Part shown: positions 7,775 through 24,986 of the stretch, piece by piece
Position numbering within the stretch: position 1 is the stretch's first letter
How the letters are laid out: every line of letters begins with the position of its first letter
IMG/VR virus record: IMGVR_UViG_3300033074_001205
DNA length: 64,000 nt
Direction: 5' to 3' (one strand)
Origin: an uncultured virus (IMG/VR IMGVR_UViG_3300033074_001205)
Taxonomy: Duplodnaviria > Heunggongvirae > Uroviricota > Caudoviricetes
Notes under the pieces: generated by a model
The model's input: only the letters and a program-made list of their open reading frames with translations
Told to the model about the DNA's origin: nothing
Databases searched by the model: none
Position numbers and translations under genes: made by a program

Positions 7775-7808
7775 TGTTAACTCCTTATTAATTTGTTTCT
7801 TCAGTGAT

Positions 7809-7911: not shown

Positions 7912-7939
7912 AAATTATAGGGAAAAGTCCCTATAATTT
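7912..7939. terminator. Hairpin / probable terminator
   Basis: AAATTATAGGGA-aaag-TCCCTATAATTT perfect inverted repeat downstream of 7972..8160. Confidence 0.55.
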
Positions 7940-7971
7940 GATTTTTGTAGTATTAATTCTAAGTTATTTGA

Positions 7972-8160
7972 CTAGAACCAAGTGTAAATTCCGTGTATAA
8001 TACCTATTGGAGGTAAGAACACACCTATTGTTGCTAAAATAGTTTCACCAGTTGCTGTGAAAGTTTCTAATTTGAATATGTATAGGATATTTGAAATATA
8101 TCCAACAAAGCCTACCACCCAAAGGAATAGTAAGGTTAATCCTGCAATTAATCGTATCAT
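7972..8160 (-). CDS. Small two-TM membrane protein
   Basis: 62 aa, hydrophobic, IGVFLPPIG. Confidence 0.7.
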   Translation of the reverse strand: MIRLIAGLTLLFLWVVGFVGYISNILYIFKLETFTATGETILATIGVFLPPIGIIHGIYTWF

Positions 8161-8169
8161 TTGTTTTCC

Positions 8170-9362: not shown

Positions 9363-10048
9363 TAACAATCTTTACAAATTAATGCTTTAGAATAATCTGC
9401 TTTATACAATGTGTCTGGTGATTGTTGAGCCCATTTTTCCCACTTTCCTGAAGCACCATTCTCAGCCCATTCTTTTGCTTGAATTGGGTCTTGCTCTCTT
9501 GAGTTAATTTCAGCTAAACACTCTTTCATAGCTTTTCTGAAACAATATCCTAGTGATTTAACTCGCTTAGGTATTTTCTTATACTCTTCATAATTAACCA
9601 GCATAGCTTCAGATAAACCTTTGTTTGCATATCCCGATTTAGCTAATGAGCCTGTAAAGACCACAAAACGGTCACATAGTGAATCAATAATTTCATCAAT
9701 TACACCATCTGCATCAATTTCTTCTTTAGCTTCCGAAGCATACATATCTAACTCACTTGCTTCATCATAATCTATGTTATTTCTTTGGATATTCCAATCA
9801 ATAATTTGGGATTGAATTTCTGCAAGTTTATAGTTAGGAATCTCGTAATCTTCCCCTAATAATTTCGTAGCGAACTGTAAGCCTAATTCAATTTGCTTAT
9901 GATTGAGCTCAGGTAATTGTGCTATACTAACTGTTGCAATAGCTTCAGCCTCTTCTTGCTCAGCAATCCCTAAAAGACCAACCCCATAAAGAGTATCAAG
10001 CTCATCTTGTGTTAAGTCTTCATTTATTTCTGTTAAATACTCTGCCAT
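9362..10048 (-). CDS. MazG-like / all-alpha NTP pyrophosphohydrolase
   Basis: Acidic helical motifs SEAKEE and EIIDSLCDRFVV, followed by EINSR...GKWEK. Confidence 0.6.
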   Translation of the reverse strand: MAEYLTEINEDLTQDELDTLYGVGLLGIAEQEEAEAIATVSIAQLPELNHKQIELGLQFATKLLGEDYEIPNYKLAEIQSQIIDWNIQRNNIDYDEASELDMYASEAKEEIDADGVIDEIIDSLCDRFVVFTGSLAKSGYANKGLSEAMLVNYEEYKKIPKRVKSLGYCFRKAMKECLAEINSREQDPIQAKEWAENGASGKWEKWAQQSPDTLYKADYSKALICKDC

Positions 10049-10275
10049 TATAAATCTCCCTCAAACTTATCTTCTACTTTTACTTTTAAAACTAATGCAA
10101 TAAGCCCAGCAAATAATGCTACAACTATTGCTACATCTCCAAACACCTTACTATCTAAACAAAATGATGTAATAACTCCTGCACCAACAAATGCAAGTAG
10201 AAACACTAATGCAATAATTGATTCAAGAATATTCACACCAATAAGTTTCAGAACATCTTTCTTACTCTCCATCAT
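10048..10275 (-). CDS. Two-TM membrane protein
   Basis: Likely start MMESKK; two hydrophobic helices. Confidence 0.65.
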   Translation of the reverse strand: MMESKKDVLKLIGVNILESIIALVFLLAFVGAGVITSFCLDSKVFGDVAIVVALFAGLIALVLKVKVEDKFEGDL

Positions 10276-10576
10276 CTTCTCCATTAGTTAAAGCATACCA
10301 AATATCAATACCAAATCCTTGTGGAAATTGTTTATCCCACTCTTTAACAAATTCTGAATCTTCTTCATAAGTTGCCATTAGTTCAAAATCATCTTTTTCA
10401 AAATTACCATCAATCTCTGAATGTTTTCCTGATATTTCCCCTAAATAAATATAGCTTCCTATTTTAGTATTTAAAAGTTCAAATGCCTCTTCTGTTAATA
10501 GTTGTACCTCTTCCCCAAAAGCATCCCTTAAACCAAAGTCAAATCTAACTAAGTATCTTTTCTTACTCTCCATCAT
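10262..10576 (-). CDS. Hypothetical phage protein
   Basis: Likely start MMESKK with AAGGA RBS; YLGEISGKHSEI motif. Confidence 0.7.
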   Translation of the reverse strand: MMESKKRYLVRFDFGLRDAFGEEVQLLTEEAFELLNTKIGSYIYLGEISGKHSEIDGNFEKDDFELMATYEEDSEFVKEWDKQFPQGFGIDIWYALTNGEDDGE

Positions 10577-10937
10577 AATATCCTTCATTTATAAATGTTA
10601 AATCTAAATCATTAGATTTCTGTATAGGCACTTCTAAAAGTCCTATCGTTGTTTTTACTTTAACAGAAACCATATTGAAATGATTCAATAGATATTTATA
10701 TGAACTACTTGCTATATTAACCTGCTGGAGTTTTATACATTTTCCTGCATTAATATTATGTAGCTTAGAAATACCACCTAAACCATTATAACAAAGGAAA
10801 GGTTGAAGAGTTTGGCAATCACCTACTACTTCAACCTTTCCTAAGAATTTTGACAAATGTTTTCCCTGTTTAAAGTTTCCGTAAAGCCCTATTGAAATAA
10901 TCTCGTCAGGAACTTTATTTGTTTTTACTTTAGCCAT
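10563..10937 (-). CDS. Hypothetical protein
   Basis: 124-aa ORF in the operon. Confidence 0.6.
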   Translation of the reverse strand: MAKVKTNKVPDEIISIGLYGNFKQGKHLSKFLGKVEVVGDCQTLQPFLCYNGLGGISKLHNINAGKCIKLQQVNIASSSYKYLLNHFNMVSVKVKTTIGLLEVPIQKSNDLDLTFINEGYYDGE

Positions 10938-10946
10938 ATCAATTTC

Positions 10947-11192
10947 TTAAATTTCATCTACTTCAAGATATTCAACATTAAATTCTTCACCTTTTTTACC
11001 AGCTTGATATGCTAATTCCATTAATTTTTCAATTCTAAAGCAATCACTAAAGTTTCTATTTAAATTAGAATCTTCGGGTTCTCCATCATAAACTTCAAAT
11101 TCGTCTTTGCCATTAATTTTTATTAAGAGAGCATTACAATAGTCTCTCCTTTCAATTTCCTCTTCAGTCAGTGTATATATTTCAACTTTCAT
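10947..11192 (-). CDS. Hypothetical phage protein
   Basis: 81 aa; DGEPEDSNLNRNF motif; AAGGA RBS. Confidence 0.7.
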   Translation of the reverse strand: MKVEIYTLTEEEIERRDYCNALLIKINGKDEFEVYDGEPEDSNLNRNFSDCFRIEKLMELAYQAGKKGEEFNVEYLEVDEI

Positions 11193-11258
11193 TTTATTCC
11201 TTTAATTTATAGTTTGCTAACCTTTCAGGTAGGAGTGTTAGCTCCATACCTTTGAATA

Positions 11259-12254
11259 TTACTCATCTGAATCTGCAAAAGGGTCTGATTCCTCGTCAGC
11301 TTCAGCACTCGCAGGAGCTTTATCTTCAGTTGTTTTAGAACCTTTTGCATAAGCTACTTGGTCTTGAATGAACTTAGCAATCTCTCTTGTAGTACCAAAT
11401 ACAATATCTTTCAACTCAGTTATTTCAGCACCTTCCATCTTTCTAATTGGTTGGATTTGAATGATTGGATTCTCTCTAACATCATTTCCAGTAATTTGTA
11501 ACTCATTAATCCAAGCAGATTTCATTCCAGTTGCTTCTTTGTTGAAGATTGCTACAAGGTTTTCTTTCTCGTCATACTTAGCAGAAAGTTCCATATAGAA
11601 TTTTTCCCATTTATCTTCAATTAAAACTAATCCAAATAATACTACTCTAAACTTTGTTTTAAGTGTATCAGGAACTTTAGCTTGAGTTTTACCTTGCTCA
11701 CCATCAGGATATTGTTTCTTTAACTTTGTATTAATAGAAAGTGCAGACTCTCCACCTTTAATATTGAACATAACTTCTTGGTGTGATGGGAAAATACCAT
11801 CTGCTAAAGTTGTTTCAAAGTTTGTTGGTAATGGTTTGTTTTGGCTATCAAAAATATTTCTCACTAATTTATATGCAACTTTGTTCACAATGATTGTTGG
11901 TCTTTCTCCAACTTTAACTGTTGAACATTTATCTAAATCAAAACCTTTTTTATCTTCTGTTTTAGCAATTACTGTATTATAGTAGAATGTTTCATCTTCA
12001 AATAACTCGTCTTTTTTGTTTTTCTTTAATTCTTTATTAAGTTTATACATCGCTGATTTAGGGTCAACTTTGTAGAATTTTAATTCGTTGAATCCCTCAG
12101 GTTTGTATTTAAAATTACCACCAACAGAGTCACTAATAGAACCTTCTGAAATAGCTTGTGATAAAGCTTCCTCTTCTGTAATCCCAAATAATTCCACATA
12201 ATCTGTGATAATCATCATCTCTTCGTTTGTTAAGTTTGCTATAGTCTTTGCCAT
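11259..12254 (-). CDS. Probable single-stranded DNA-binding / annealing protein
   Basis: 331 aa with an acidic tail containing PF (ADEESDPFADSDE); replication context. Function is inferred. Confidence 0.5.
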   Translation of the reverse strand: MAKTIANLTNEEMMIITDYVELFGITEEEALSQAISEGSISDSVGGNFKYKPEGFNELKFYKVDPKSAMYKLNKELKKNKKDELFEDETFYYNTVIAKTEDKKGFDLDKCSTVKVGERPTIIVNKVAYKLVRNIFDSQNKPLPTNFETTLADGIFPSHQEVMFNIKGGESALSINTKLKKQYPDGEQGKTQAKVPDTLKTKFRVVLFGLVLIEDKWEKFYMELSAKYDEKENLVAIFNKEATGMKSAWINELQITGNDVRENPIIQIQPIRKMEGAEITELKDIVFGTTREIAKFIQDQVAYAKGSKTTEDKAPASAEADEESDPFADSDE

Positions 12255-12341
12255 AATCTTTTCCTTTATCTTTATATTTTTTTAATCTTTAGCCCATTGC
12301 TGGGAAACTTGTCTGAAAACCCTTTAACATTCTTCTTATTG

Positions 12342-12405
12342 AAGAACATTGCAAACGCACTTTGAGATAACATGGAAAAACTTAAAGTGCGTTTGCAATG
12401 TTCTT
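12342..12405. repeat. Perfect 22-bp inverted repeat with 20-nt spacer
   Basis: AAGAACATTGCAAACGCACTTT (12342-12363) / AAAGTGCGTTTGCAATGTTCTT (12384-12405). Confidence 0.95.
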
Positions 12406-12416
12406 TGTTTATATTA

Positions 12417-12876
12417 AAGCAAGAAGAGGCTTGAAAAGTAATCGTGACCTTTCTGGGTGAGCTTTCTTGCTTATTTGTCGAAGAGGTATGAAGCTAAATA
12501 CATAGTTTCAACTAAAACCCTTCTTGTTCATTGATATAGTTAAGCAATGCCTTCATAATATAGTAGTAGCTACGCTGTACGTACGTTCTACATAAAATAT
12601 TAATATAAACTTACCTAATTAAGTTATCTTCGTAAGAGATTAGAACTCTTGGCTATCTTGGGCTTGGGTATCTAGTCCCACCTTGATAGTCTAGCTAGTA
12701 TCAACCTTTAGCCTCTCAGTCAACGAAGATTTTGATATAGCTTGTATGGTGAGCTATGGAGTTAGACCCCGACTCTTACTCGGCACTATATCTGATAGGA
12801 TTTCCACCTACGCCCTTGTCCAGCGGAAACGACTCCGAAACAAGGCTCACTCTACTAGTTCGTAATTCAAGTGAGC
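12417..12876. ncRNA. Candidate structured non-coding RNA(s), family unknown
   Basis: ORF-free, locally GC-richer, with many nested helices (12417-12472, 12626-12730, 12747-12850, 12845-12876). Confidence 0.55.
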
Positions 12877-12925
12877 AGTTATTTGTTATAATGTTTCAAC
12901 AGAGTAATTATAGGATTACTTTGCT

Positions 12926-13990
12926 TTAGTTTTGCTTAAATCTAGCAAGAAAATTCTCTTTTGTACTTTTATTTGCACCAGATTCCCCTTTAGCATAATT
13001 CATAACAGTTCCTTCAAAGAATCTTTCATTAGTTGCATTAAAATCTAACCAGTCATTAAACCATACAAAAGGATTTTTAACACCTTCGTAAAGTTCAGGC
13101 TCTCCTATTTTAGAGAAAGCTTGATTAGCTAAACTTTGAATGAACATTTCAATAGTTTTATCAGATATTCCTAATATTCTATTTCCTGTAATATATTTAC
13201 CCCAACCTATTTCTAAATCAACTGCTTCTTTGAACATTGCTTTTGCTTTTGGTAGAATATTAGCATACTCTTTAGGGTATTCATCTTTGCATATTTTAAT
13301 AAATGATGCGAATAGCTCTGTATGAGTTGTGCCCTCATCTCTAGCAATAAACCTAATCGACTTTGCTGACTCTTTCATTTTACCAAGCTTCTGGAAGTTA
13401 CCAAACACCAAGAAAACACTATAAAAATAAATATGCTCTAATGCTAAGTTAGCAAAGAAGGCTAATATTTTATCTTCAGTTGATACCTTATCACTGGCTT
13501 TTAATCTTTCATAAACTTCTAATATATGTGAGTTCTTTTCATACATAACATTATCTGTTAGGAACATATTATATATCTCCTCTCTATCTAGCTCAAAAGT
13601 ATCAATCATCTCTAAGTATTGAGTACAATGTAACGCTTCCTCCATTCCCTGACGAATGATACAAAACTTTGACCAAGTTTCTGTAATAAAAGGTAGAATA
13701 TTTATAGGAAGATTTCCTGTCTGAATCCCATCTAAATTTGAAGCAAAAGCTAAGGCAAGTTTAAATGTTCTCTTCTCATCATCAGTCATTTTATAGTTCC
13801 AATCATAAACATCTTCTGTAAGATTAGTTTCATCAATGAACCAAGTATTTGCTAACATAGCTTCCCAGATATTTTGACCCATAGGTATAACTTTACCTTT
13901 TATTTCTACTGTATAGGGTGAGAAGTCAAGACGCATTGTCTTGTCTTCTTCTCCATTAATCAATCTTATATTTCTATTTTTATCTTTCAT
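12926..13990 (-). CDS. nrdB: Ribonucleotide reductase class I beta subunit
   Basis: NLDGIQ, EEALHCTQY (radical Tyr), LEHIYFYSVF, RDEGTTH, C-terminal FFEGTVMNY. Confidence 0.95.
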   Translation of the reverse strand: MKDKNRNIRLINGEEDKTMRLDFSPYTVEIKGKVIPMGQNIWEAMLANTWFIDETNLTEDVYDWNYKMTDDEKRTFKLALAFASNLDGIQTGNLPINILPFITETWSKFCIIRQGMEEALHCTQYLEMIDTFELDREEIYNMFLTDNVMYEKNSHILEVYERLKASDKVSTEDKILAFFANLALEHIYFYSVFLVFGNFQKLGKMKESAKSIRFIARDEGTTHTELFASFIKICKDEYPKEYANILPKAKAMFKEAVDLEIGWGKYITGNRILGISDKTIEMFIQSLANQAFSKIGEPELYEGVKNPFVWFNDWLDFNATNERFFEGTVMNYAKGESGANKSTKENFLARFKQN

Positions 13991-14005
13991 TAAATTCCTT
14001 AAATT

Positions 14006-16345
14006 TTAATCACACCCAGCACAAGCTATATTACTTTCTTTCTTATCCTCAAATGAGGCAGACAACTTAGACCTATTCTTTAGGTAATATGTTGATTTTA
14101 ATCCTAACTGCCAAGCAAGGATATAAAGACCCATCATATCATCAAAATCCCCATCTAAAGGTTTAAATAAGTTTAAACTCTGTGACTGTGTTAACCACTT
14201 CTGCCTTTTAGCTGCCATTTTTAATACTAACTCTTGATTAATCTCCTCAGCAGGTTGATATTGTTGGTAGTTATTAATAGAAATACTTGGTGCAGTTACT
14301 GCAATCATATCTCCATTCTTAGCTTCTTCCATATATCTTCTTTTATACACTGGCTCAATACAAGGTGTAGTGCCTAAATGAACTGATATAGTTCCTGTTG
14401 GAGCAATCGCTGTTAAATTAGCATTTCTCATACCATCTTTTTGAACTTTTACCCTTAACTCCGACCATTTAAACCTAGGGGTGTCTTGTAAAACTTCACC
14501 AGTTCCTAACTCAGCAGTTAAAATACCTTTTGACCAAGAGCTTCCTTCAAATGTTTTATATTTACCCCTTGATACAGCCAAATCACTACTTGTCTGAATT
14601 GAATAATAATCCATAGCTTGATAAACCTCATCAATATAGTTACTATGCTCTAATGTTCCAAAATAAATACCTCTTTGAGCTAATGCTTCCATTTCACCCA
14701 TAACGCCTAGACCAATGTTTCTATCTTCCATTCCTGCTTTATATGTTTCGGGAGTTACATATTTATTTATTGTAATAACATTGTCTAACATCCTTACACC
14801 AAGTCTTGTAACTCTTTCTATATTTTCTTCATTAACCCTTGCAAGATTAATTGAGGCTAAGCAACAGATATTAGTTTTACCTAAATTCCACTTCTCAATA
14901 GCGTTTCCATCTGCATCTAGCTCCCATCCTATGAAGGTTGTAGGCTTAGCTACCACACCAATTTCTACACATAACTGGCTTGACTTAATAATCCCATCAT
15001 GTGCTTGTGTATTTCTTCTATTAAAGTTATCTCTAAATAAAATAAATGGAGCACCTGTACCATCTAAAGACTGAATAATCTTTTTAAAGACCTCATAGGC
15101 ATCATACGACTTCTTCTTTATATGTTTATTTTGTTCAAACTCTATATAAAGTCTTTCAAACTCTTCACCCCAAACTGTGTTTAATATAGCTACTTCTTTA
15201 GGGTCAAATAGTGTCCATTCTTCTCCTGCTAAAATTCTTTTGAAGAATAAATCTGGAATAAATAGCTCAGGATAAATACCCTTACCTTTCACCCTTCTAG
15301 CCTCATCTCCTGACTGTTTCTTTAACTCAATAAAGTCGAATAAATCCCAGTGATAAGGTACAATAGATATTGCTCTACTTCCATTTCTAGTCCCTGCTTG
15401 GTTATATTGCATAGTATATCCATGTGCAGTTTTTATGAAAGGAACAACTCCATTAGCACCACTTACAAAGTTTCTTAATGATGAACCATTACATCTTAAA
15501 TCTGTAATATCATCTCCAACACCTCCCCCATAAGAAGAACATTCTGCAAAGTTTGCATCACTTCTTACTCTTGATTTTAAAGTATCACCCACAGTCCCAA
15601 CAAAACAAGCAATTAACATACCATAAGGAGTCCCTGCATTTGCTAAAATAGGAGTTGAGCCTGATAACTCAAACTTAGAATAAGCATTATACATTTCAAT
15701 AGCCCAACAATGTCTATAAACATTTTCTATTGAAAGAAGTGGGTTCTTTTTAACTACTTCTTGAATTAATGATTCAGGCAACCAATCTTTATCAAAATCT
15801 TTAATAGATACTGCCATCGCAATCCTCATAAAGAAGTGTTGAGGCATTTCTATTAAAACACCTTGTTTATTATATTTAGCATATCTATCTCTAAAAGTAA
15901 TTATTCCATTATATGTGTATAAGTTATCTCTTGAGGTATCAATAAATGTATCTAATAAGTTTAAATCATATTCTAATAAATCATTTACATAAATACCTTC
16001 CTCAACAGCCTTTTCTACAACTTCTTTTAATGGTTTATATTTATTTCTTCTTCCAGCGTCTTTTATTAAAGACTGTAGCTCCAACCTCGCACCAAGGTAT
16101 GTATAGTTTGGACTCTCTACTCTAATCTTATCATTAACAGTTTTCTTTAAAGTTGTTTGAATTTCATTTGTAGTAATTCCCTCAGTAAATACTAAGTGAG
16201 AATCTCTCTCTACTTCTAAAATATCAATTCCTTCAATACCCTCACCAGCTTTCTCTAAAGTTTGTCTAATCTTAATTATATCTAAAGGAACTTTTTTACC
16301 ATTTCTCTTTAATACATTGATATTATTCAAATCATTTCTCCTCAC
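14006..16345 (-). CDS. nrdA: Ribonucleotide reductase class I alpha subunit with N-terminal ATP cone
   Basis: VLKRNG ATP cone, TPILANAG, ACF, QLCVEI, AIAPTGTIS, GLKSTYY, C-terminal CAGC. Confidence 0.97.
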   Translation of the reverse strand: MRRNDLNNINVLKRNGKKVPLDIIKIRQTLEKAGEGIEGIDILEVERDSHLVFTEGITTNEIQTTLKKTVNDKIRVESPNYTYLGARLELQSLIKDAGRRNKYKPLKEVVEKAVEEGIYVNDLLEYDLNLLDTFIDTSRDNLYTYNGIITFRDRYAKYNKQGVLIEMPQHFFMRIAMAVSIKDFDKDWLPESLIQEVVKKNPLLSIENVYRHCWAIEMYNAYSKFELSGSTPILANAGTPYGMLIACFVGTVGDTLKSRVRSDANFAECSSYGGGVGDDITDLRCNGSSLRNFVSGANGVVPFIKTAHGYTMQYNQAGTRNGSRAISIVPYHWDLFDFIELKKQSGDEARRVKGKGIYPELFIPDLFFKRILAGEEWTLFDPKEVAILNTVWGEEFERLYIEFEQNKHIKKKSYDAYEVFKKIIQSLDGTGAPFILFRDNFNRRNTQAHDGIIKSSQLCVEIGVVAKPTTFIGWELDADGNAIEKWNLGKTNICCLASINLARVNEENIERVTRLGVRMLDNVITINKYVTPETYKAGMEDRNIGLGVMGEMEALAQRGIYFGTLEHSNYIDEVYQAMDYYSIQTSSDLAVSRGKYKTFEGSSWSKGILTAELGTGEVLQDTPRFKWSELRVKVQKDGMRNANLTAIAPTGTISVHLGTTPCIEPVYKRRYMEEAKNGDMIAVTAPSISINNYQQYQPAEEINQELVLKMAAKRQKWLTQSQSLNLFKPLDGDFDDMMGLYILAWQLGLKSTYYLKNRSKLSASFEDKKESNIACAGCD

Positions 16346-16616
16346 CTTCTTTTAATTTTTCTAATTTGAACATATCTCGCTCAAATATTTTTCTCAAACC
16401 TTTTATATTTTTCATTCTAAATTTAACTGCCTCACCTTTTATTATATCATTCTTTTTCAAGTGATAAATCAAAGTTTCTTGGCAAGAAAACTTATACCCA
16501 AACTTAATCTCAACCATTTCAGTAAGTTCTTGATAAGATAAGTTATTAATATTATCTTTTAAGAATGTTATGATTTGGTCGTGTCTAGGATTGTGCCTAA
16601 GCTGTTGATTGCTCAT
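16332..16616 (-). CDS. Hypothetical basic protein, possible HTH
   Basis: 94 aa; LSYQELTEMVEIKFG helix pattern. Confidence 0.6.
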   Translation of the reverse strand: MSNQQLRHNPRHDQIITFLKDNINNLSYQELTEMVEIKFGYKFSCQETLIYHLKKNDIIKGEAVKFRMKNIKGLRKIFERDMFKLEKLKEGEEK

Positions 16617-16618
16617 TA

Positions 16619-16906
16619 CTAAACCTTAAACTTATGATATGAGCAATAGAATGTGTCTGAATCATTTATATATTCTCCATACTCATCATTTGCAACATTC
16701 TTTAAACAAAGGCCATCTTCATCTCTTAAATCAAAGTTTGCAAAAGTATCAAAATACTCACAAGTATCACAGCACTTTCTTCTACAGTCCACAGCATATT
16801 CAGGACGTATACTATAAGGTGGGTCTATTCTAGCCCTTTGATAAATTTTAACCCATGCAAGTCTTTCTCGCTCAGTCAAATCTCTAGATTGTTCAACATA
16901 ACTCAT
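16619..16906 (-). CDS. Cys-rich hypothetical protein
   Basis: CCDTCEYF...GLC...FYC. Confidence 0.65.
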   Translation of the reverse strand: MSYVEQSRDLTERERLAWVKIYQRARIDPPYSIRPEYAVDCRRKCCDTCEYFDTFANFDLRDEDGLCLKNVANDEYGEYINDSDTFYCSYHKFKV

Positions 16907-17277
16907 CTATACTCCAATAATTCTGGATTCTCATAAATGTTACCTATCACACATTCACAAGTCCAATCATATAAATCTTGTATTTCATTATCAAATTCAA
17001 CAACAAAAGCACCTTTATAAAATTTAACTTCACCCCAACAACCACTATGACTATCTAACATATAATCACCTTCATATATTTCCACATTGTTTGTATCAGT
17101 AAGCCCAGTGAATTGCATTAATTCTGTATTAAATCTACACCCTAATAAAATTTCTGTTGAAGTGTAATCCATATACTCATTTGGAATATTTACACCAATA
17201 CCTGACTGGAAACTCATTGGAAATAACATTTTACTATTTTTATAGTCCCAAGCCCTAAATTTATATTCTCTACTCAT
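16903..17277 (-). CDS. YopX-family protein
   Basis: REYKFRAWD, LMQFTGLTD..VEIYEGD, VIGNIYENPELL. Confidence 0.92.
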   Translation of the reverse strand: MSREYKFRAWDYKNSKMLFPMSFQSGIGVNIPNEYMDYTSTEILLGCRFNTELMQFTGLTDTNNVEIYEGDYMLDSHSGCWGEVKFYKGAFVVEFDNEIQDLYDWTCECVIGNIYENPELLEYR

Positions 17278-17861
17278 CTCAGCCCAATCCTTTCACTTTC
17301 TTTCTCAAGTTTCTTACACAATCTATTGAAGAAAGTTCGAACGTATCCTACACTATCTGTGTTTAAAACTTCCTTAAAAACTAACACATCAATATCATTG
17401 TAAAGGTTATATCCTGCAAAAGACATTTCAATAACTAACTTTTCTTGATTTGTTAAATTGAAATCTCGCTCGTGTTGATAATAAATTTCCTTCTGCGTTG
17501 TCAAATCAAAATCATTTAGATAAAGATATGTTTCTTCATTGTTTGTGTCATATCCACCAGTGATTTCATCATTGAATGGAGACTTCCATATTACTTTACC
17601 ATCAGCATCTTTTATTTGATAACACCCTGCTTTAGGTCTTGCCTTTGTTCTTATGTAAAGATAAACTTTTCTCTCAGCTTCTGACTCAGATGTTTCTGAA
17701 TAATCAGCTAGTTCAAGTATCTTTTCCTTATGTTCTGCCCAAACTTCTAATGTAGCACTTTCTCCTAAATCAATAGGAACATCATACCTATATAACAGGT
17801 AATTTGCTACAAGAGTTGTTAGTGATAGAATCCTTTCAAAACTTAATGTTTTATCTTGCAC
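17274..17861 (-). CDS. Hypothetical protein, possible sigma region-4-like C-terminus
   Basis: 195 aa; LTNQEKLVIEMSFAG...YVRTFFNRLCKKL resembles region 4 of sigma-like factors (weak). Confidence 0.55.
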   Translation of the reverse strand: MQDKTLSFERILSLTTLVANYLLYRYDVPIDLGESATLEVWAEHKEKILELADYSETSESEAERKVYLYIRTKARPKAGCYQIKDADGKVIWKSPFNDEITGGYDTNNEETYLYLNDFDLTTQKEIYYQHERDFNLTNQEKLVIEMSFAGYNLYNDIDVLVFKEVLNTDSVGYVRTFFNRLCKKLEKESERIGLR

Positions 17862-18094
17862 TAATCTCCCTTACCTAAATGATTTAATCCCATACTTAAC
17901 ATAACCTTCGCAGTAGCTTTTGAACAGGTCATCATTGAATCAACTTTATTTCCATCTAAAGAATATAACCCAATGAAATTCTTCACATTATATCTTCGTA
18001 ATAATAAATCTAAATCATATTCAAAATCTTCTTCCTCAGCAACTACACAACTAAACTCTTCGTCTAAATCTTCTCCCATATAACTCCTTCTCAT
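17861..18094 (-). CDS. Hypothetical protein
   Basis: 77 aa; promoter immediately upstream; true start may be MGEDL after AGGAG. Confidence 0.6.
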   Translation of the reverse strand: MRRSYMGEDLDEEFSCVVAEEEDFEYDLDLLLRRYNVKNFIGLYSLDGNKVDSMMTCSKATAKVMLSMGLNHLGKGD

Positions 18095-18107
18095 TTACTT
18101 ATAGTGT

Positions 18108-18129
18108 ATTGTATCTAATTATTGCTTAA
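18108..18129 (-). promoter_or_regulatory. Promoter TTAAG-N11-TACAAT
   Basis: Matches the recurrent motif with exact 11-nt spacing. Confidence 0.65.
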
Positions 18130-18136
18130 TCTTTTC

Positions 18137-19573
18137 TTAAACTAATAAAGTTTTCTCCCAATTTACATGATAACCCGTGTTATCATAACACATCACTCCT
18201 AAAAAATTAACATCAACACTTTCTTCAGAAATAAAAGCATCAAACAACAATAAATTGACTGACATCTTCTCCCTAATCACATCTAAAATCTTTGCCTCAA
18301 TTCCTTGGTAAATAAATGGTATCACCTTGCTCTTAAACTTTTTCCATTCAGTAAATCTAAGAATACTCCCTAATTCATTCCTAATAATCCACTCACCATC
18401 AAACTTGCATTGTCTTTTATAATATTCTTGTAGTGTTTCATTTAGGTCTAAGCACTCAGCAACAAGCTCCTTAATTGATTCATCTAAGAGTATTGTATCT
18501 AATTGTTCCTTAGAGAAAGCTTTATACAACTTACTTTGGCTATGTAAATTTTCAACATCAATCCCAAAGAATAAACTTGTCAGATATTGCTTGGCTTGTT
18601 TCTCTTCAAAACCTAACTCTATAATCTTGTTTCTATAAAAATCTTTATCAGAAATATAAGACTCAATGTATGGATAGTATTTATCTATATTAATCTTTGT
18701 TAAATGTTGTGTTAAAATACTTGCAACACTTGTAGCAATATCATATTCATATTGTCCTTGAAATATAATCTTTCTCATAGCTTTAGAAGCATTTTGAAGT
18801 GAAGCATAGCCAAAGCCCTGTGTTCTGTTAAATAACCTTCCAAACTTACTTCTAGTATATCCTAGCTGTGGATTTCTCTCCAACACTTTCTTAGTAATAC
18901 CTAACCAAGTTATTGTTGTTTCCATTTCTAAATCACCATTGCCATTATATTCTGCACGAAGCTTTAAATAATGCTCGTTCATATATTCTTCATTCCAAAT
19001 TACATAGTGCATTGCATCAAATCTCTCGTTAGTTTTTAGTTCAATGTCTTGCTTCTTTCTATTTATAGGCTCTGTGAATAGTGAATAATACTCAACCATT
19101 TGCAGAGAATCTAGCTCTTTTCTTTTCATATTAAATTTTTCCTTAATTTCTTTCTTTGTTTTGTATAAATTGTTTTGATGTAAATATCTTTTTATAAATA
19201 TCTTTTCCTTAGTTACTTTAATATATTCTGGCAAGATTAGCTGGTCAAGAACCTCCATAAAGAACTTATACTTTAATCTATAGCCTTTGCTTATATTATC
19301 TTGTGGGTATAGAAGGTTGAAGTGATAATTTTCATCAACATCTATGAACTGATATATTGCTAAGGTCTTTTCTTTATAACCTTTACTACTTAAGCTAAAG
19401 TAACTATTTATCTCAGCTATTGGTATTCTCAAATAACCATTCCCTTTTAGGGCTTGAAACAACAATCTTGTTAAAAAAGAGATTGTGCTATATAATTCCT
19501 TCTTGGATAACCCTTCTAAAGAATATTTGTAAATAAACTTATCAACATCTATTAGTGTAAAACTTTCTAACAC
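18137..19573 (-). CDS. Divergent family-A DNA/RNA polymerase-fold protein without exonuclease domain
   Basis: In order: FGRLF, SLQN, motif A-like EYDIATSVASIL, motif B-like AKQYLTSLFFG, IYQGIEAKIL, motif C-like LLLFDAF. Confidence 0.7.
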   Translation of the reverse strand: MLESFTLIDVDKFIYKYSLEGLSKKELYSTISFLTRLLFQALKGNGYLRIPIAEINSYFSLSSKGYKEKTLAIYQFIDVDENYHFNLLYPQDNISKGYRLKYKFFMEVLDQLILPEYIKVTKEKIFIKRYLHQNNLYKTKKEIKEKFNMKRKELDSLQMVEYYSLFTEPINRKKQDIELKTNERFDAMHYVIWNEEYMNEHYLKLRAEYNGNGDLEMETTITWLGITKKVLERNPQLGYTRSKFGRLFNRTQGFGYASLQNASKAMRKIIFQGQYEYDIATSVASILTQHLTKINIDKYYPYIESYISDKDFYRNKIIELGFEEKQAKQYLTSLFFGIDVENLHSQSKLYKAFSKEQLDTILLDESIKELVAECLDLNETLQEYYKRQCKFDGEWIIRNELGSILRFTEWKKFKSKVIPFIYQGIEAKILDVIREKMSVNLLLFDAFISEESVDVNFLGVMCYDNTGYHVNWEKTLLV

Positions 19574-19608
19574 ATCTTTTCTCCTTATGTTGAATTAGTT
19601 TCAGTGGA

Positions 19609-19641
19609 ATTATATAACTAGATTTCTTTCAAATAACTTAA
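19609..19641 (-). promoter_or_regulatory. Promoter of the PolA-like gene, TTAAG-N22-TATAAT
   Basis: -10 at 19609-19614 and TTAAG at 19637-19641; overlaps the outer left arm of the inverted repeat. Confidence 0.6.
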
Positions 19642-20197
19642 GCAGGAAGGTATAAGGTATGTTATTATCACTTATTTGACCATGTTGTTGCTTCAAAATC
19701 GCTACAAGCCCGATGTAGTCGTGGCTAGAGCCTTGCACAACTTTTGCATTATTTAGAACATATGTACTACAATATAGTTCAAGTTAATTTACCATATAAG
19801 ATACTTTAGACACAATTAACTATCTTAATTTATGTAATAGGATAAATTAGTTAAATAAGAGCCTACAAGGCACGAAAGGTATAGACCCTAGTCTTACTAT
19901 TCCTTTATGGAAACTTTACCTTGTGTTGAGGCTGAGCTATGTCTATGAGCATTTATGTATTAGCATTAAACTAAAGTATTGGTATAGAGTTTTACTTAAT
20001 AGAAAAGTTGTATAACACTTAAAGGGTATGTTATTACAAAAAGTGTTGAGATTAATATTAAAATGTTGCAAAAGTTGTGCAAGGCTCTAGCCACGATGTG
20101 GTGGTGCTTACAGAGATTTTATATCAACAACATGGTCAAATAAGTGAGATAACTACTTCTATTTCCAACCTGCTAGGAATCTTTTAATCTAATCTAG
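19618..20197. repeat. Long imperfect inverted repeat (arms 19618-19748 and 20067-20197; 318-nt spacer), candidate origin
   Basis: Perfect blocks of 30 bp (19719-19748/20067-20096), 23 bp (19668-19690/20125-20147), 6 bp and 7 bp, all symmetric about 19907.5. Confidence 0.93.
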
Positions 20198-20437
20198 CAA
20201 AATACTTATACAATAAACTTATATAAAATCTTGTATCATACTACAATAAAATACACCACTATACTTACTAATATTATAGATTTATTCAGAAGTATATGTT
20301 TTAATATAAGCTAAGCATTGTTTAAGTAATATTTAGCTAAAATCTATATAGAAACTATTTTAAAGATATAAATAAAGTTAGTTGTAAATAAGTGTGTAGG
20401 AATGATTTTATATGCACACCCTAGTCTTACTATTCCT
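19885..20437 (+). repeat. 20-bp direct repeat ACCCTAGTCTTACTATTCCT (2 copies)
   Basis: Exact copies at 19885-19904 and 20418-20437. Confidence 0.9.
20322..20343 (+). promoter_or_regulatory. Rightward promoter TTAAG-N11-TAAAAT
   Basis: Same motif and spacing as the leftward promoters; upstream of the structural block. Confidence 0.55.
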
Positions 20438-20541: not shown

Positions 20542-20988
20542 TTGGATATAATTGCATTATTAGAAAGCAGGTTTGGTACAAATTATATTTATGAGATACT
20601 AGAGTATAATGAAATAAAATCATTATCTTTAGTTAGGGTTATATGTAAGAAGCATAACAATATTGAAGAAGGGCTTGTTATAAATTTATTACATAAGAAA
20701 ATACCTTGTGGAATTTGTGAGGAAGAAGATGGGGGAAATATAGAGGGCGAGAAAGTGGAAAAATTAAATAGAAAGAAGTATCAGTTAGCTGAGTTGATAG
20801 AAAAGTTTGAAGCAGTACATGGGAATAGATTTCTATATCATGACTTAGCTTATTTTTATGTTAATATGAAAGTGCCAGTCAATATCAAATGTGTGAAACA
20901 TAATCACTTTTTTAAACAAACACCAAGTAATCATATAAATACCAAGGTGTGCTGTGATAAATGTTTAGAAGAATTAGTAAATTCATGA
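20542..20988 (+). CDS. Zn-binding repeat protein (two DUF723-like CxxH...CxxC units), no nuclease domain seen
   Basis: VICKKH...PCGIC and IKCVKH.HFFKQTPSNH...CDKC; AAGGAG RBS, TTG start. Confidence 0.7.
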   Translation: MDIIALLESRFGTNYIYEILEYNEIKSLSLVRVICKKHNNIEEGLVINLLHKKIPCGICEEEDGGNIEGEKVEKLNRKKYQLAELIEKFEAVHGNRFLYHDLAYFYVNMKVPVNIKCVKHNHFFKQTPSNHINTKVCCDKCLEELVNS

Positions 20989-21196: not shown

Positions 21197-21745
21197 ATGG
21201 GAGAGGTTGAAAATAAACTCTTACAGTTAACTTCATCGGGAAGTTCATCAAAGTCTGTTGCGGAGGTTGGTGCTGAGTTACCTGCTGAAGTTAATATAAG
21301 ATTAGATGAGATAGAAGATTTAACAAATAGGTCTAGCAAGATTCTATCAAACTTAGATTACCAAATATTAGTCGCAATGACTGGAATCGTTGGTGAGGAT
21401 AAAGTTGCTGAAGAGTTTGGTGTGACTAAAGGTTATATTAGAAAGTTGATGCGAAGTGCTGATGGTAGTGAGTTTTTGAAAGAACAAGCTAAGCAAAAGG
21501 CTGAGATGAGTTTAGCAATTTCAACGAATATGTTACACGAGGGATTGAACATCTGGCAGAATCATATTGGGGAATTGATGGCTAAGGGTCAGACTGAGAT
21601 GGCTCTCTTTCATTTATTTGGGAAGAGTTCATTGTCTGATGTACAAGCTTCAATTCATAAACAGCAAAGTGCTACTCCCGAAGATAATGGTAACGGGCTT
21701 ATGAACTTATTCGCTTCTATTACAGTTAATGGGGGTGGCAAGTGA
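21197..21745 (+). CDS. Probable terminase small subunit
   Basis: HTH-like KVAEEFGVTKGYIRK; directly upstream of and overlapping terL. Confidence 0.65.
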   Translation: MGEVENKLLQLTSSGSSSKSVAEVGAELPAEVNIRLDEIEDLTNRSSKILSNLDYQILVAMTGIVGEDKVAEEFGVTKGYIRKLMRSADGSEFLKEQAKQKAEMSLAISTNMLHEGLNIWQNHIGELMAKGQTEMALFHLFGKSSLSDVQASIHKQQSATPEDNGNGLMNLFASITVNGGGK

Positions 21746-23166
21746 GTGAAGCTAAACAGTTAATAACCTCTAAAGATATTTTAGAATTTAGAAAGTATCA
21801 AGGCACAATATCTCCAATAGCAGTAGCTGAGATGTTGGGGCAACCTCTTCATAAAATTCAAGCAGATATAGCTAAATACTTTGAAAAGCCTTTGATAGAT
21901 ACTTGGCACGAAGCTACGTGGTTAATGTCAAGAAGGTTAGGTAAATCATATCTTGGTATTAAAATAGCAACAAGCTTAATGCTAACACCTTATAGTAAAA
22001 TTGCATTAATAGCACACTCAACAAGTTTATCTGAGGTTTGGTTTAAAGAAATATTAAATGACTTAATGTCAATCCCTGAAATAAGAGATAAAGTAACTTG
22101 GGAAAAGAAAAATGGTATCATAGAGATAAAAGAGCTTAATACCTTGTTTATTTGCTGTTCATATCTTAATGCTGACACAAAATTAATTGGAAAGAGCTTC
22201 AACTTTATTTTGAAAGACGAATTCTTTCTGGTGGACAAAATATATCAGGAAGAAATATATAATTTAGTTACACCAACTACAGCTAACTTTGGTTCTAATG
22301 AAGGAATTAAATATGCAAAGCAAGTTATCTTAAGTACTCCTAGGGGTACTATAACTGGCTCACACTCAGGTAGAACGTATCTAAAAGGTTTAAATAAGGA
22401 AAAAGGATTTATCTCATTTAAGCACGATATTTATGAGTCTCCATTCTTAACAGAGGGGGAGATAGAGTTAATAAAGCAAACTACCCCTGAGTCAGTCTGG
22501 CTACAGGAATTTTGTTGCTGCTTCACCCGTCAGGAGGCTTCAGTAGCTAGGGAATTTGATAAAAATAAACACGTAATTCATATATCAGATAAAATGATAC
22601 GAGATATGATACACTACTGTGACATTATTGTAGCCTTGGATACGGGGGTACGTGATGGAAACGCATTTTCTGTGGTACTTTATAATAATAAAACTGAGAC
22701 ATATTACGCTGTAGCTGAACACTATAAGCAAGGTGAAATTGTATACGATTTTATAAAAAATGCAAAAGACACAGCTACAGCTTTTTGTAAGAAATTTGAA
22801 GTACCTTTTAATAGGGTTTATTTCTTCATAGACCCCTCGTCAAGTGAGGCAAAATTACAGGCAAATAAGTTATTTGACCTTACTATGCACAATGCAAAAA
22901 ATAATAGAGATGCAGGAATAGATTATCTAAATCAAATATTACAAGGTAATGGTGAAGCTAAAATACCTAAACTATTCATATCAGATAAGTGTGAAGTTCA
23001 TATATCTCAACTAGAATATGCTGAGTTTAAAGCTGTGTCTGGTGTTATGTCAAACCAATTTGCGAAAGACCCAATACGAGATTCTCACTATGATGTATTA
23101 CAAACATTAATCTATGCAACATTTACCCATTATAAAACCTCGCACAGTTCATTCATAATATCCTAA
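21742..23166 (+). CDS. terL: Terminase large subunit
   Basis: Walker A SRRLGKS, Walker B FILKDE, coupling motif LSTP, QEFCCCF, RNase H-like ALDTG, IDPS, HYD. Confidence 0.92.
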   Translation: MSEAKQLITSKDILEFRKYQGTISPIAVAEMLGQPLHKIQADIAKYFEKPLIDTWHEATWLMSRRLGKSYLGIKIATSLMLTPYSKIALIAHSTSLSEVWFKEILNDLMSIPEIRDKVTWEKKNGIIEIKELNTLFICCSYLNADTKLIGKSFNFILKDEFFLVDKIYQEEIYNLVTPTTANFGSNEGIKYAKQVILSTPRGTITGSHSGRTYLKGLNKEKGFISFKHDIYESPFLTEGEIELIKQTTPESVWLQEFCCCFTRQEASVAREFDKNKHVIHISDKMIRDMIHYCDIIVALDTGVRDGNAFSVVLYNNKTETYYAVAEHYKQGEIVYDFIKNAKDTATAFCKKFEVPFNRVYFFIDPSSSEAKLQANKLFDLTMHNAKNNRDAGIDYLNQILQGNGEAKIPKLFISDKCEVHISQLEYAEFKAVSGVMSNQFAKDPIRDSHYDVLQTLIYATFTHYKTSHSSFIIS

Positions 23167-23280: not shown

Positions 23281-23610
23281 ATGAAGTTTGATAAAATAAA
23301 CTTTGTTTTAAATGTATTATCTTCTGAAGTAGTCTTAAAAGGCAAACAAAACCTAATAAAACTCTTCATAGTAGATAGTATAGCAGATACGCAAATATCT
23401 GAAGTAGAATATAAGCTACAAATCAATGATGGAAGAACAGCCACAATTCTTGTCAAAGACTGGGCTACATTAGAGCAGCTGGGTGATTTTTTCACGGATA
23501 CCTACATCCCAACTTTCACAAACAAATCTACCATAGAATTATTAGTAAGAATCACTGACACGGATGGGAACATCTATGCTATGTCACACAACTTACAAGG
23601 AGTTATATGA
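23281..23610 (+). CDS. Hypothetical beta-rich (Ig-like?) virion-module protein
   Basis: 109 aa with AAGGAG RBS, between terL and portal. Confidence 0.7.
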   Translation: MKFDKINFVLNVLSSEVVLKGKQNLIKLFIVDSIADTQISEVEYKLQINDGRTATILVKDWATLEQLGDFFTDTYIPTFTNKSTIELLVRITDTDGNIYAMSHNLQGVI

Positions 23611-24986
23611 TGGGCTTGTTTGGATTCACTAAGACAAAATCACAACCAATTAAACAAAGAGAAAAGACTGTTATAACTGCTTCGGAAGCTGCTGCCTATC
23701 AAAATGGTGGGAATCTTCCAACAGATAATAGAAACTTTCAAGCCTACATTAATGCAAGTTCAAGATTAGACACTTTAATACGAACTTCAGCATTAGTTGC
23801 TTCAAGTGCTAGATTTCAATATGGGAAAGTTGATACTAAAGGGAATTTTAAAATAGTTACATTTAAACAATCTGATGGGTTATATATGAATGATTATCAA
23901 ACAGAGAGTGATTTCATATTTGAGCTATTTGGTACCTTAATGACTTATGATAAAGTATTATTGATTCCAGAACAAAGCAAATATCCATTCAGAAAAGGTA
24001 TGATAGATTGGTCTATTGTTCCTGATGACCAGTTCTCTGCTAACTTAGGAACAAATCAATCCATAGAAACATTCACACATAGAAGTTCAACGGGGATTGA
24101 AACAATCTACAAATACTCGGAAGTAGTTTATATAACTAGAAACCTTACAGCAAACAACTTAATATATGCTATACCAAAGATTAAAGCATTGATGAAAACT
24201 ATTGAAAATATTCTTGGTATTCACAACTTTATGGGAGAATATATTGCAAGTGGTGGTAAGAGTTCAATTATAGCTTCTAGCGACAGTTTACTTAGTGAGG
24301 AACAAGGTAGAGCTGTTAAGAAGTCACTACAAGATTTCTTAGGTTCAAATGCACCAAAAGCATTACTAATCAACTCAGAAAAGTTTACACTAGATAAAGT
24401 ATCAGACAGCCTCACAACAGCAGGTGTATTAGATATTATAACAAAACTTTCTGACGAGATTAGTAAATCATTCAATATGCCAAGTTATTTGCTTGGAGAA
24501 TATTCAAGCTCAACGCAAGGTACAACTATGCAAATGGCGAATCGAACTTGGTTTCAGATTCAGCTAAGACCTTTATTCACAACTTTATCAAGTGCTTTTA
24601 CCAGATATTATAGAGACTTTGGTGGTGTGAAAAATGTAAGTGTTAGATTTGATTTTAGTGAGATTGACCTGCTAGAGGATAGTGATACAGATAAATTGAA
24701 AATTGCTAATGATTCACTTAAATCAGGAATTAGAAGCTTAAATGAGGCAAGAGTTTATTGTGGATTACCTCCATTAGAAACTGAGTCTGCTGATTTACAC
24801 ATATCACCTGCTTTCTTGACTGGGCAATCACCTGTTTCTTTTGAAAACTTTGAAGCAGATATTGCAAGAAACTTAGCTTCAAGTAATGCTAATACTTCTA
24901 CTGGGACTGGGACAACACCTAGCGATGGTATTCCAAACGGAGAAGGTGGTGCATTAAATGAGCCAAACAATTCAGGGAGAGCTTAA
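23607..24986 (+). CDS. Portal protein (HK97/T5-like)
   Basis: Position; ISKSFNMPSYLLG, LRPL, SLNEARVYCGLPPL. Confidence 0.9.
   Translation: MMGLFGFTKTKSQPIKQREKTVITASEAAAYQNGGNLPTDNRNFQAYINASSRLDTLIRTSALVASSARFQYGKVDTKGNFKIVTFKQSDGLYMNDYQTESDFIFELFGTLMTYDKVLLIPEQSKYPFRKGMIDWSIVPDDQFSANLGTNQSIETFTHRSSTGIETIYKYSEVVYITRNLTANNLIYAIPKIKALMKTIENILGIHNFMGEYIASGGKSSIIASSDSLLSEEQGRAVKKSLQDFLGSNAPKALLINSEKFTLDKVSDSLTTAGVLDIITKLSDEISKSFNMPSYLLGEYSSSTQGTTMQMANRTWFQIQLRPLFTTLSSAFTRYYRDFGGVKNVSVRFDFSEIDLLEDSDTDKLKIANDSLKSGIRSLNEARVYCGLPPLETESADLHISPAFLTGQSPVSFENFEADIARNLASSNANTSTGTGTTPSDGIPNGEGGALNEPNNSGRA

Follow-up and report, generated by a model that had tools for sequence, protein, structure and literature searches.

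The 64,000-nt window analysed here, the whole of a stretch of DNA from an uncultured member of the Caudoviricetes, carries a 478-aa polymerase-like gene beside a long inverted repeat. The initial annotation saw in this pair an undescribed system, in which a site-specific polymerase would act on the two mirror-image arms. Two questions follow: what kind of polymerase this is, and whether it has anything to do with the repeat. The ORF (18137..19573, minus strand) is a real gene, with a GTG start, a Shine-Dalgarno AAGGAG 7 nt 5' of it (19581..19586, minus strand) that is invariant in 7/7 aligned strains, and a place at the head of a leftward early operon that is kept in all three phages of the group (the window, L001 and L003). 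Downstream of it come ORFs of 77 aa and 195 aa and one for a YopX-domain protein, none of which has a Pfam match to a helicase or SSB. No tRNAs were found at the locus, and metatranscriptome contigs (the runs were examined as contigs only) cover the polymerase gene as well as the spacer, in no decisive way.

All of the motifs from which a polymerase was first proposed were located, and in the order given: ISKGYRL at residue 94, GRL at 245, LQN at 259, EYDIATS at 276, K328, LFFG at 334-337, QGIEA at 423 and LFDAF at 443. They go beyond chance, since R246, D278, R314, K328, E426 and D445 are invariant in 80/80 diverse relatives; G337 is kept in 78/80. The structural check suggested in the initial annotation was run on an AlphaFold (AF2) model (pLDDT 81.0, pTM 0.67) and agreed with a family A palm and fingers bearing two catalytic Asp. 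Foldseek returned 113 matches in pdb at E <= 0.001 (best 4.3e-6, prob 1.00), the top ones all being Pol I, Klenow, Taq, Bst or Pol theta. Aligned with VIA-align, model residues ~171-478 gave Z 12.1 with apPol (264 aligned, rmsd 5.1), 12.0 with Pol theta, 11.9 with yeast mitochondrial RNAP, 11.7 with Klenow, 10.7 with T7 RNAP and 7.5 with N4 RNAPII gp16 (6dt7). For the family A polymerases the values ran from Z 11.4 to 12.1. By the model, these alignments and the conservation among 80 relatives, residues ~188-478 (18140..19012, minus strand) are a minimal core of the family-A polymerase and T7-type RNA polymerase fold, with palm, fingers and thumb. The predicted thumb consists of two helices (195-208 and 215-233) directly ahead of a beta-hairpin (strands 238-241 and 247-249) that carries the invariant R246; D278 and D445 lie in the palm, K328...F336-G337 in the fingers and Q423-G424-x-E426 in motif 6. 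As had been proposed, a 3'-5' exonuclease domain is absent: polymerases align to residues ~171-478 alone, the N-terminal part gave no nuclease fold, and neither model shows an exonuclease fold.

Two positions within this core may bear on its choice of nucleotide. Among the 80 relatives, position 283 is occupied by H (37), A (26) or V (15) and position 446 by G (54) or A (19), the motif C consensus being H-D-G/A-F; Glu is found at neither (0/80 in each case). We take 283, five residues after the motif A Asp, and 446 to be the equivalents of the Klenow steric-gate Glu and motif C Glu. With no Glu at the family-A steric-gate position, ribonucleotide use by the family is possible, as far as aligned residues can indicate.

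Residues 1-170 (19064..19573, minus strand) form a module that is basic, as first described, with a pI of 9.2 against 5.7 for residues 188-478. In the model, residues 1-112 have a winged-helix-like topology, and residues 113-170 form a long beta-hairpin followed by the conserved TKKEIKE...R..LD helices. For the winged helix-turn-helix that had been expected here, the matches in fold comparison are weak (VIA Z <= 4.8, Foldseek E >= 0.58); nearly all of them are to winged-helix proteins, plasmid and ORC initiators included. A winged helix is weakly suggested, and the module possibly binds DNA.

The gene looks like an orphan because no Pfam, NCBIfam or PHROG model covers its family. Against Pfam, PF00476 and PF00940 included, the ORF matched nothing at E <= 10 and none of the 80 relatives had a match at E <= 0.01. 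NCBIfam had no match to the ORF, and PHROGs offered just two families of unknown function, at E 0.017 and 0.16, both above 0.01. No match was returned by blastn of the locus or tblastn of the protein against 50,697 phage records, by a search of the same records with the broad-clade member P0100, by a PDB sequence-profile search with the ORF (0 at E <= 10) or by searches of IMG/VR with the single relatives P0013, P0040 and P0077. A scan of genome contigs gave no confirmed relative, and the ESM Atlas yielded 'hypothetical protein' clusters only. A profile search of proteins nevertheless recovered 870 representatives (clusters at 50% identity) at E <= 1e-3 and 247 at E <= 1e-10, mostly of 400-570 aa. 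The family also occurs in 7-11 kb plasmids and circular elements, the small plasmids having their own Rep, and a serine recombinase is present in 4/6 of its IMG/VR loci and in 2/2 Polaromonas plasmids.

The family appears to have a name. One family profile (A2) matches a single place in the genome of Microcystis phage Ma-LMM01 (E 1e-3), a 506-aa hypothetical protein adjoining transposases. In hhalign this protein scored 96.6% with a second profile (A7; E 5e-10, 188 columns) and 92.8% with A2 (E 4e-7, 191 columns), against 0.5% for the family versus the co-resident canonical PolA. As the only match in that genome, and in a transposase context, we infer it to be the Ma-LMM01 member of the TV-Pols, the predicted primase-polymerases of Iyer, Abhiman and Aravind (2008, Biol Direct 3:39; PMC2579912). 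On this sequence evidence the 478-aa protein belongs to the TV-Pol family, described in 2008, and the system is hence not an undescribed one; the proposed role in primer synthesis accords with the prediction set out for the family in that account (PMC2579912).

The protein is probably not the replicase, as had also been suggested, because related phage contigs carry a canonical PolA too. It was detected as PF00476 in G002 and G003 (132 and 126 bits), two of the three related contigs, and in the syntenic relatives has 884 aa and an exonuclease region. The G002 PolA gene sits just past the segment matching the right end of the window, and from this synteny the canonical PolA of the present phage would be expected past that end.

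The explanation towards which we lean, with modest confidence, is that of a TV-Pol-type accessory primase-polymerase that acts early while a separate canonical PolA copies the genome. According to this model, the basic and possibly DNA-binding N-terminal module precedes a TV-Pol-type catalytic core in which a two-helix thumb, an Arg hairpin, a palm with two Asp and small fingers would carry out catalysis without proofreading. Early in infection the enzyme would begin or extend short DNA or RNA chains, and the canonical PolA seen in relatives would copy the phage genome separately from it.

Among the alternatives, one that we consider unlikely is an accessory enzyme working outside the start of replication, in repair or gap filling, in recombinase-linked replicative transposition or in counter-defence. 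The family is dispensable for vegetative replication in Polaromonas, since mini-replicons without an intact homologue still replicate, pH8NP1 having none and pW9NP1 only its last ~140 nt (PMC6015842), a result that also counts against the favoured reading. The recurrence of the family with serine recombinases points the same way, replicative transposition having been proposed for the recombinase context in the account of Iyer et al. (PMC2579912), as do the two paralogues of the TV-Pol-type gene in G002. However, no recombinase was found among the scanned ORFs of the window, and the position at the head of the early operon, kept in 3/3 phages, suggests a core early role.

Rather improbable, in our estimate, is a role in transcribing phage genes as a small single-subunit RNA polymerase, in the manner of T7 gene 1 or N4 RNAPII. 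The core aligns with the mitochondrial and T7 enzymes (Z 11.9 and 10.7) much as with DNA polymerases (Z 11.7-12.1), Glu is missing both at the steric gate and after the motif C Asp, a canonical PolA coexists in relatives, and the gene is the first early gene. Against this, no multi-copy conserved promoter-like sequence was detected in the 64 kb, and the repeat blocks and 20-mer described below are confined to this locus; neither PF00940 nor any other Pfam family matches the protein, and a private RNA polymerase is implausible in the 7-11 kb plasmids and circular elements that harbour the family. A repeated phage promoter was rejected as a candidate: apart from one 16-mer with three copies, the k-mer census of the 64 kb gave only the contexts of ribosome-binding sites.

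The second question concerns the inverted repeat at 19608-20207, which is real, as the initial annotation had it. Its arms are 147 nt each, 71% complementary and 306 nt apart. The left, gene-proximal arm (19608..19754) holds block B at 19668-19690 and block D at 19719-19748, and the right arm (20061..20207) holds D at 20067-20096 and B at 20125-20147. The two blocks (B 23 nt, D 30 nt) are exact inverted copies, each found at these two places only in the 64 kb. Between the arms, AT-rich stretches (20-24% GC) flank a central GC-richer element (19848..19935, 42% GC), which contains the 20-mer ACCCTAGTCTTACTATTCCT at 19885-19904; a second exact direct copy lies on the plus strand at 20418..20437, ~105 nt ahead of the first ORF that runs rightward (20542). 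For blocks B and D and the 20-mer, 0/100 shuffles reach two matches. In three runs, the match of contigs to the window starts at 19848-19852 and extends to the right only.

This repeat is part of a control region of ~1 kb that separates the early and late operons, and could be an origin, a set of operators or a packaging site. The promoter claimed to overlap one arm was not recovered: a sigma-70-type scan gave 6 sites against 9.5 expected in shuffles, with no minus-strand site inside the arm. An RNA element at the repeat likewise found no support, with no Rfam match at gathering score (a CRISPR-DR match at E 0.68 is a chance one) and no significant fold among eight of 101 nt placed across the arms, centre and second 20-mer site (z -0.96 to +1.82). 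A TTGCA-N7-TGCAA operator in block D was set aside as well; it occurs once in the window, also in 11/100 shuffles, and is absent from L001-L004.

Could the repeat be the cognate origin of the enzyme, which would bind the mirror arms through its N-terminal domain and lay primers or start divergent transcription there? The repeat lies directly beside the gene, ~35 nt from the start codon, and the layout is symmetric, running from arm through AT-rich stretch, central element and AT-rich stretch to arm. The basic N-terminal module has its weak matches to winged-helix proteins, initiators among them, blocks B and D are all kept in 5/9 of the strain loci that have upstream sequence, and CCPol-MP, too, is described as priming preferentially at a site adjoining its own operon (PMC7581432). 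However, the repeat is preserved only in near-identical strains. Co-occurrence with homologues, the check named beforehand, failed: among loci of more distant homologues (29-39% identity), 0/4 have a comparable long inverted repeat upstream, the longest there being 28 nt at 71-75%. Nor are changes in one arm mirrored in the other, L011 and L014 being altered in one arm each, L009 lacking the proximal B and L010 having a diverged distal B, and in the strain variant L019 a 263-aa methyltransferase-like ORF splits the repeat from the polymerase gene. The terminase/HNH block is equally near the repeat, which could therefore just as well serve in packaging or regulation. A link between repeat and enzyme is therefore not supported, and we think the cognate-origin proposal quite improbable.

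The same low credence attaches to a bolder combination, in which a gate-less TV-Pol would make RNA primers at a mirror-symmetric origin, replacing a DnaG or AEP primase and feeding the canonical PolA. The setting of that proposal is a large virulent phage with no recognised primase among its scanned ORFs. Neither a primase nor a DnaB-type helicase was recognised in those of the window (46 with PHROGs, 31 with Pfam) or in 30 ORFs scanned for relative G002 (two early minus-strand arms; 79%-complete). Least credible is a replicative DNA polymerase of the phage that merely lacks proofreading: the catalytic residues are intact and the scanned window ORFs (46 with PHROGs, 31 with Pfam) yielded no second DNA polymerase, but the PolA with an exonuclease region in the syntenic relatives, its place just past the window-matching part of G002, the thumb of two helices only and the presence of the family in small plasmids with their own Rep all stand against it.

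The gene is of wider interest. In the 2008 account, TV-Pols were proposed to represent a minimal core ancestral to Pol I-type and T7-type enzymes and a third kind of primase (PMC2579912), and as of 2020 CCPol-MP was, by its authors' statement, the sole TV-Pol assayed (PMC7581432). Here is a large family, with 870 representatives, that Pfam, NCBIfam and PHROGs all miss and that is without the ribonucleotide-rejecting residues of family A. In an abundant wastewater phage, a gene heading the early operon provides a handy enzyme for testing priming by the bare core and its nucleotide choice, and with a family profile, genes listed as 'hypothetical' in phages, plasmids and small circular elements would gain a name by the hundreds.

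Set beside known systems, the protein shares with T7-type RNA polymerases, N4 RNAPII included, the core fold (Z 10.7 for T7, 7.5 for N4 RNAPII gp16) and, presumably, a small residue in place of Glu at the fifth position past the motif A Asp. It is about half the size of T7 RNAP, and neither promoter-recognition elements nor, in the 64 kb, repeated promoters were identified. With canonical family A enzymes (PF00476) it shares the fold and, in the same order, a TGR-like G-R-L, LQN, the motif A Asp, motif B K...Y/F-G, motif 6 QG and motif C (H/F)D. It differs in having no detectable profile similarity (hhalign 0.5%), in lacking an exonuclease domain and both Glu residues, that of the steric gate and that of motif C, and in a K+4 residue that is never aromatic (T, I or L). 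The 19 family A clusters of Czernecki et al. (2023, PMC10201439) could not contain the present family, since they were built from PF00476-tagged sequences only.

CCPol-MP of SCCmec, whose CCPol is counted among the TV-Pols by Iyer et al., is described as a proven primase that synthesises primers de novo (Bebel et al., 2020, PMC7581432). It resembles the present protein in its family-A fold, mobile element, truncated N-terminus and shortened thumb (PMC7581432; Rice, 2023, PMC10061031). In contrast, CCPol is, in those descriptions, annotated as A-family, retains the rNTP-excluding residues of Pol I, uses dNTPs and needs an adjacent OB-fold partner, MP, together with the helicase Cch2 (PMC7581432, PMC10061031), whereas the present family has a PF00476 match in 0/80, a Glu gate in 0/80 and no partner gene recognised in the window.

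The TV-Pols as Iyer et al. portray them have neighbourhoods with a resolvase, integrase, transposase or D5-like helicase and fingers with a conserved Asp (PMC2579912); at position 309 the 80 relatives have D (31) or N (38). Three features depart from that portrait (PMC2579912). The RxxxK motif of the fingers is not present as written, the residue four before K328 not being Arg and R314 and K328, both invariant (80/80), standing 14 apart, a spacing that the Ma-LMM01 protein has as well. The N-terminal domain predicted there is all-helical, whereas the model of ours combines helices and strands in a winged-helix-like arrangement. Beside the window gene a recombinase or D5 helicase is missing: of the scanned ORFs (46 PHROGs, 31 Pfam), none next to it was recognised as a resolvase, integrase, D5 helicase or OB-fold partner. 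Other features are shared (PMC2579912): a length of 400-600 aa, here 478, with no nuclease domain; a two-helix thumb, a hairpin with an absolutely conserved Arg and two palm Asp, all as modelled here; an extra N-terminal globular domain in a subset; gamma-delta resolvase or transposase neighbours, paralleled by the serine recombinases of the wider family; and occurrence in phage genomes that keep polymerases of their own.

The 478-residue ORF that the initial annotation took for a candidate undescribed system encodes a polymerase of a known kind, the TV-Pols, as judged by profile homology to a protein of cyanophage Ma-LMM01. The gene occupies 18137-19573 on the minus strand, starts with GTG, has AAGGAG 7 nt upstream, and contains every polymerase motif named in that annotation, in the order stated there. 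A close search found ten relatives (33-96% identity), and an AlphaFold2 model based on their alignment had a mean pLDDT of 81.0 and a pTM of 0.67. Foldseek matched this model to 113 PDB entries with E ≤ 0.001; the top-scoring ones all belong to DNA polymerase family A, led by Aquifex Pol I (4.3e-6) and continuing with Klenow, Bst, Taq and Pol theta, each at probability 1.00. VIA, a structure search independent of Foldseek, aligned 264 residues of the segment spanning residues ~171-478 with apPol (Z 12.1, rmsd 5.1), and gave the same segment Z-scores of 12.0 with Pol theta, 11.9 with yeast mitochondrial RNAP, 11.7 with Klenow and 10.7 with T7 RNAP; N4 RNAPII scored 7.5 against the model. Because DNA and RNA polymerases are matched comparably, the core as modelled is the fold that family-A DNA polymerases share with T7-type RNA polymerases, and the nucleic acid made by the enzyme cannot be told from the fold alone. 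The earlier call of a polymerase fold is thus upheld by the model and by both searches.

The N-terminal 190 residues, modelled separately (pLDDT 87.2), have only weak fold matches (VIA Z ≤ 4.8, Foldseek E ≥ 0.58). Winged-helix proteins account for nearly all of these, among them MarR family members, ORC2, TubR, MotA and the N-terminal domain of a plasmid initiator. The N-terminal module (residues 1-170) is basic (pI 9.2), and a winged helix in it is plausible.

A profile search of 1.84 billion representatives retrieved 870 proteins at E ≤ 1e-3, of which 247 reached E ≤ 1e-10 and 33 reached E ≤ 1e-30; most of the proteins are 400-570 residues long. In an alignment of 80 sequences from among the best 150 relatives, R246, D278, R314, K328, E426 and D445 are invariant, Y239, Q260, R267, K310 and G337 are conserved in 90% or more, and the consensus reads Y..E..SGRLY...NLQN...YDYDIxNCH...K..L.AL.YGA...LAHLLQGxEA...LLQHDGF. 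In contrast to canonical PolA, the family lacks Glu both five residues past the motif A Asp, where 37 of 80 members have H, 26 have A and 15 have V, and at the residue following the motif C Asp, where 54 have G and 19 have A, and it has no aromatic residue at position K+4. None of the 80 members matches PF00476 or any other polymerase Pfam family, none of eight tested, the ORF among them, matches an NCBIfam model, and hhalign gives 0.5% between the family and the canonical PolA of a related phage. A published 19-cluster PolA classification was built solely on PF00476-tagged sequences and therefore could not contain this family (PMC10201439).

The inverted repeat upstream of the gene is real: its 147-nt arms (19608-19754 and 20061-20207) are 71% complementary and align through perfect blocks of 23 nt (block B) and 30 nt (block D), separated by a diverged stretch of ~28 nt. 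Within the 64 kb, each perfect block occurs only at its two positions in these arms, and two matches were obtained in 0 of 100 shuffles. The arms have a GC content of ~40-42% and the enclosed centre 42%, against 20-24% in the stretches that flank the arms; the centre holds a 20-mer with an exact second copy at 20418. In three runs there are contigs whose match to the window begins at 19848-19852 and extends rightward only. Searches turned up no Rfam family, no tRNA and no significant fold. Near-identical gene copies (92-99% identity) are present on 15 metagenome contigs, nine with upstream sequence; both blocks are found in both arms in five of these, a partial set in three and a single block in one, the contig ending inside the element in two of the four incomplete cases. 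In the alignment, block D contains the best-conserved piece, a core of 24 nt. When one arm changes, the other shows no matching change, which means that pairing between the arms is not being maintained.

A partnership of enzyme and repeat, in which the polymerase was proposed to act on both arms, fails the comparison that the initial annotation itself prescribed, since the loci of the more distant homologues (L001-L004) hold no comparable repeat; nor was the suggested overlap of the promoter with one arm confirmed on checking. In a strain-variant locus (L019, 669-1460), a 263-aa DNA methyltransferase-like ORF with a DLPYG motif lies between repeat and polymerase gene, a strain-variable cassette at the operon start that the window lacks. 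Because this ORF separates the two, the repeat marks the operon boundary rather than the polymerase gene. It may be an origin, an operator pair or a packaging site.

The phage is novel, tailed and of low GC (~31%); neither the locus nor the portal matched any of 50,697 deposited phage records, and the runs holding the stretch are labelled as wastewater, anaerobic digester, sludge, estuary and aquatic metagenomes (20 rows, 12 studies). Early and nucleotide-metabolism genes lie on the minus strand (1-19573 and 47966-64000) and include thymidylate synthase-like, ATP-dependent ligase, RuvC-like resolvase, class I RNR, Dda-like helicase, SbcCD and 5'-3' exonuclease genes. The single-copy polymerase gene opens the leftward operon and is separated by a non-coding spacer of 968 bp from the plus-strand packaging and structural genes, which run from 20542 and include TerL (21742-23166) and portal (23607-24986); an HNH-like ORF and the terminase genes lie a short way to the right of the repeat. 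Four scattered HNH-type ORFs (8646-9368, 20542-20988, 47966-48637 and 60601-61290) look like homing endonucleases, the last two being paralogues with 70-77% DNA identity across stretches of 118-125 nt. Seven head-to-tail copies of the 14-nt unit CCAAGGTATCTTTT at 1-98, followed by a GC-richer stretch, may represent a contig end, a genome end or a repeat array. The 16-mer TTAATAAAACTTTAAG has three exact copies on the minus strand (54506-54521, 63484-63499, 63735-63750) upstream of early genes, each followed by a TACAAT- or TATAAT-like box, and a degenerate fourth copy at 18094-18140, just past the end of the polymerase gene; these sites are candidate early promoters.

The window's scanned ORFs include no recognisable DNA polymerase, primase or DnaB-type helicase. 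Within the same phage group, four copies of the gene (29-39% identity) lie on three IMG/VR contigs, one of which, G002 (72 kb, 79% complete), holds two paralogues; the window, L001 and L003 share the order TerS/TerL, spacer, polymerase gene, ..., RNR. A canonical PF00476 PolA is encoded in addition by G002 (132 bits) and by its close relative G003 (126 bits, an 884-aa ORF), in agreement with the earlier view that the enzyme is not the replicase. No such PolA was seen in G001 (45% complete), and no PolB was found on any of the three contigs. Synteny with these relatives suggests that the PolA of the window's phage would lie beyond the right end of the window. On G002, a 406-aa reverse transcriptase (L002 17574-18794, minus in the locus; phrog_1423, E 2e-92) adjoins a tail protein gene and may belong to a diversity-generating retroelement. 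The RNR large subunit of a related phage (L001 14936-18331, 1131 aa) contains intein-splicing and LAGLIDADG domains.

The broader clade extends to six further IMG/VR loci, with a serine recombinase in four and ParA in two. Four of the six are ~11-kb contigs whose terminal direct repeats (55-141 nt, identical or 99% identical) indicate complete circles; on three of these, phage head, packaging or tail genes can be recognised. These circles (L023-L026), visibly higher in GC than the window, bring together ParA, a serine recombinase and a TV-Pol-like gene with either head or packaging genes (TerL, portal, protease, capsid) or a tape measure gene. They could represent mini phage-plasmids or capsid-forming satellites of a plasmid-like kind. 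Two Polaromonas plasmids (7.2 and 11.2 kb) encode a homologue with 31-33% identity over 97-98% of the clade member P0100, along with RepA, ParA and a recombinase; the pH8NP1 gene (L036 6095-7600) is named 'Clp protease N-terminal domain-containing protein' in RefSeq, which looks like a misannotation. Cloned REP modules that exclude the homologue (pH8NP1) or keep only its last ~140 nt (pW9NP1) still replicate in Polaromonas (PMC6015842). The family thus recurs as a passenger in phages and small replicons, and is not the essential initiator in these plasmids.

TV-Pols were defined in 2008 by Iyer, Abhiman and Aravind, who describe proteins 400-600 residues long in which the thumb consists of two helices, a beta-hairpin bears an Arg that is absolutely conserved, the palm carries two Asp and the fingers are small; some members possess an additional N-terminal domain and adjoin gamma-delta resolvases, integrases or transposases, and others are fused or linked to D5-like helicases (PMC2579912). 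The same account predicts primase and polymerase activity and names Ma-LMM01 as a carrier (PMC2579912). Our 80-sequence profile has exactly one match in the 162-kb Ma-LMM01 genome (E 1e-3), a 506-aa hypothetical protein adjoining two transposase genes, which we infer to be the member named there. With this protein hhalign gave 96.6% (E 5e-10, 188 columns) for a 12-sequence sub-alignment and 92.8% (E 4e-7, 191 columns) for all 80, over a region spanning the Arg hairpin to motif C. The RxxxK motif of the definition is not found as written; instead, a conserved Arg and Lys lie 14 residues apart in both the ORF and the Ma-LMM01 protein. CCPol of SCCmec is given as the sole assayed enzyme counted among TV-Pols (PMC7581432), and together with the OB-fold protein MP it is described as priming with dNTPs (PMC7581432, PMC10061031). 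On the strength of family membership and the CCPol precedent, the most likely function predicted for the ORF product is that of an accessory primase-polymerase.
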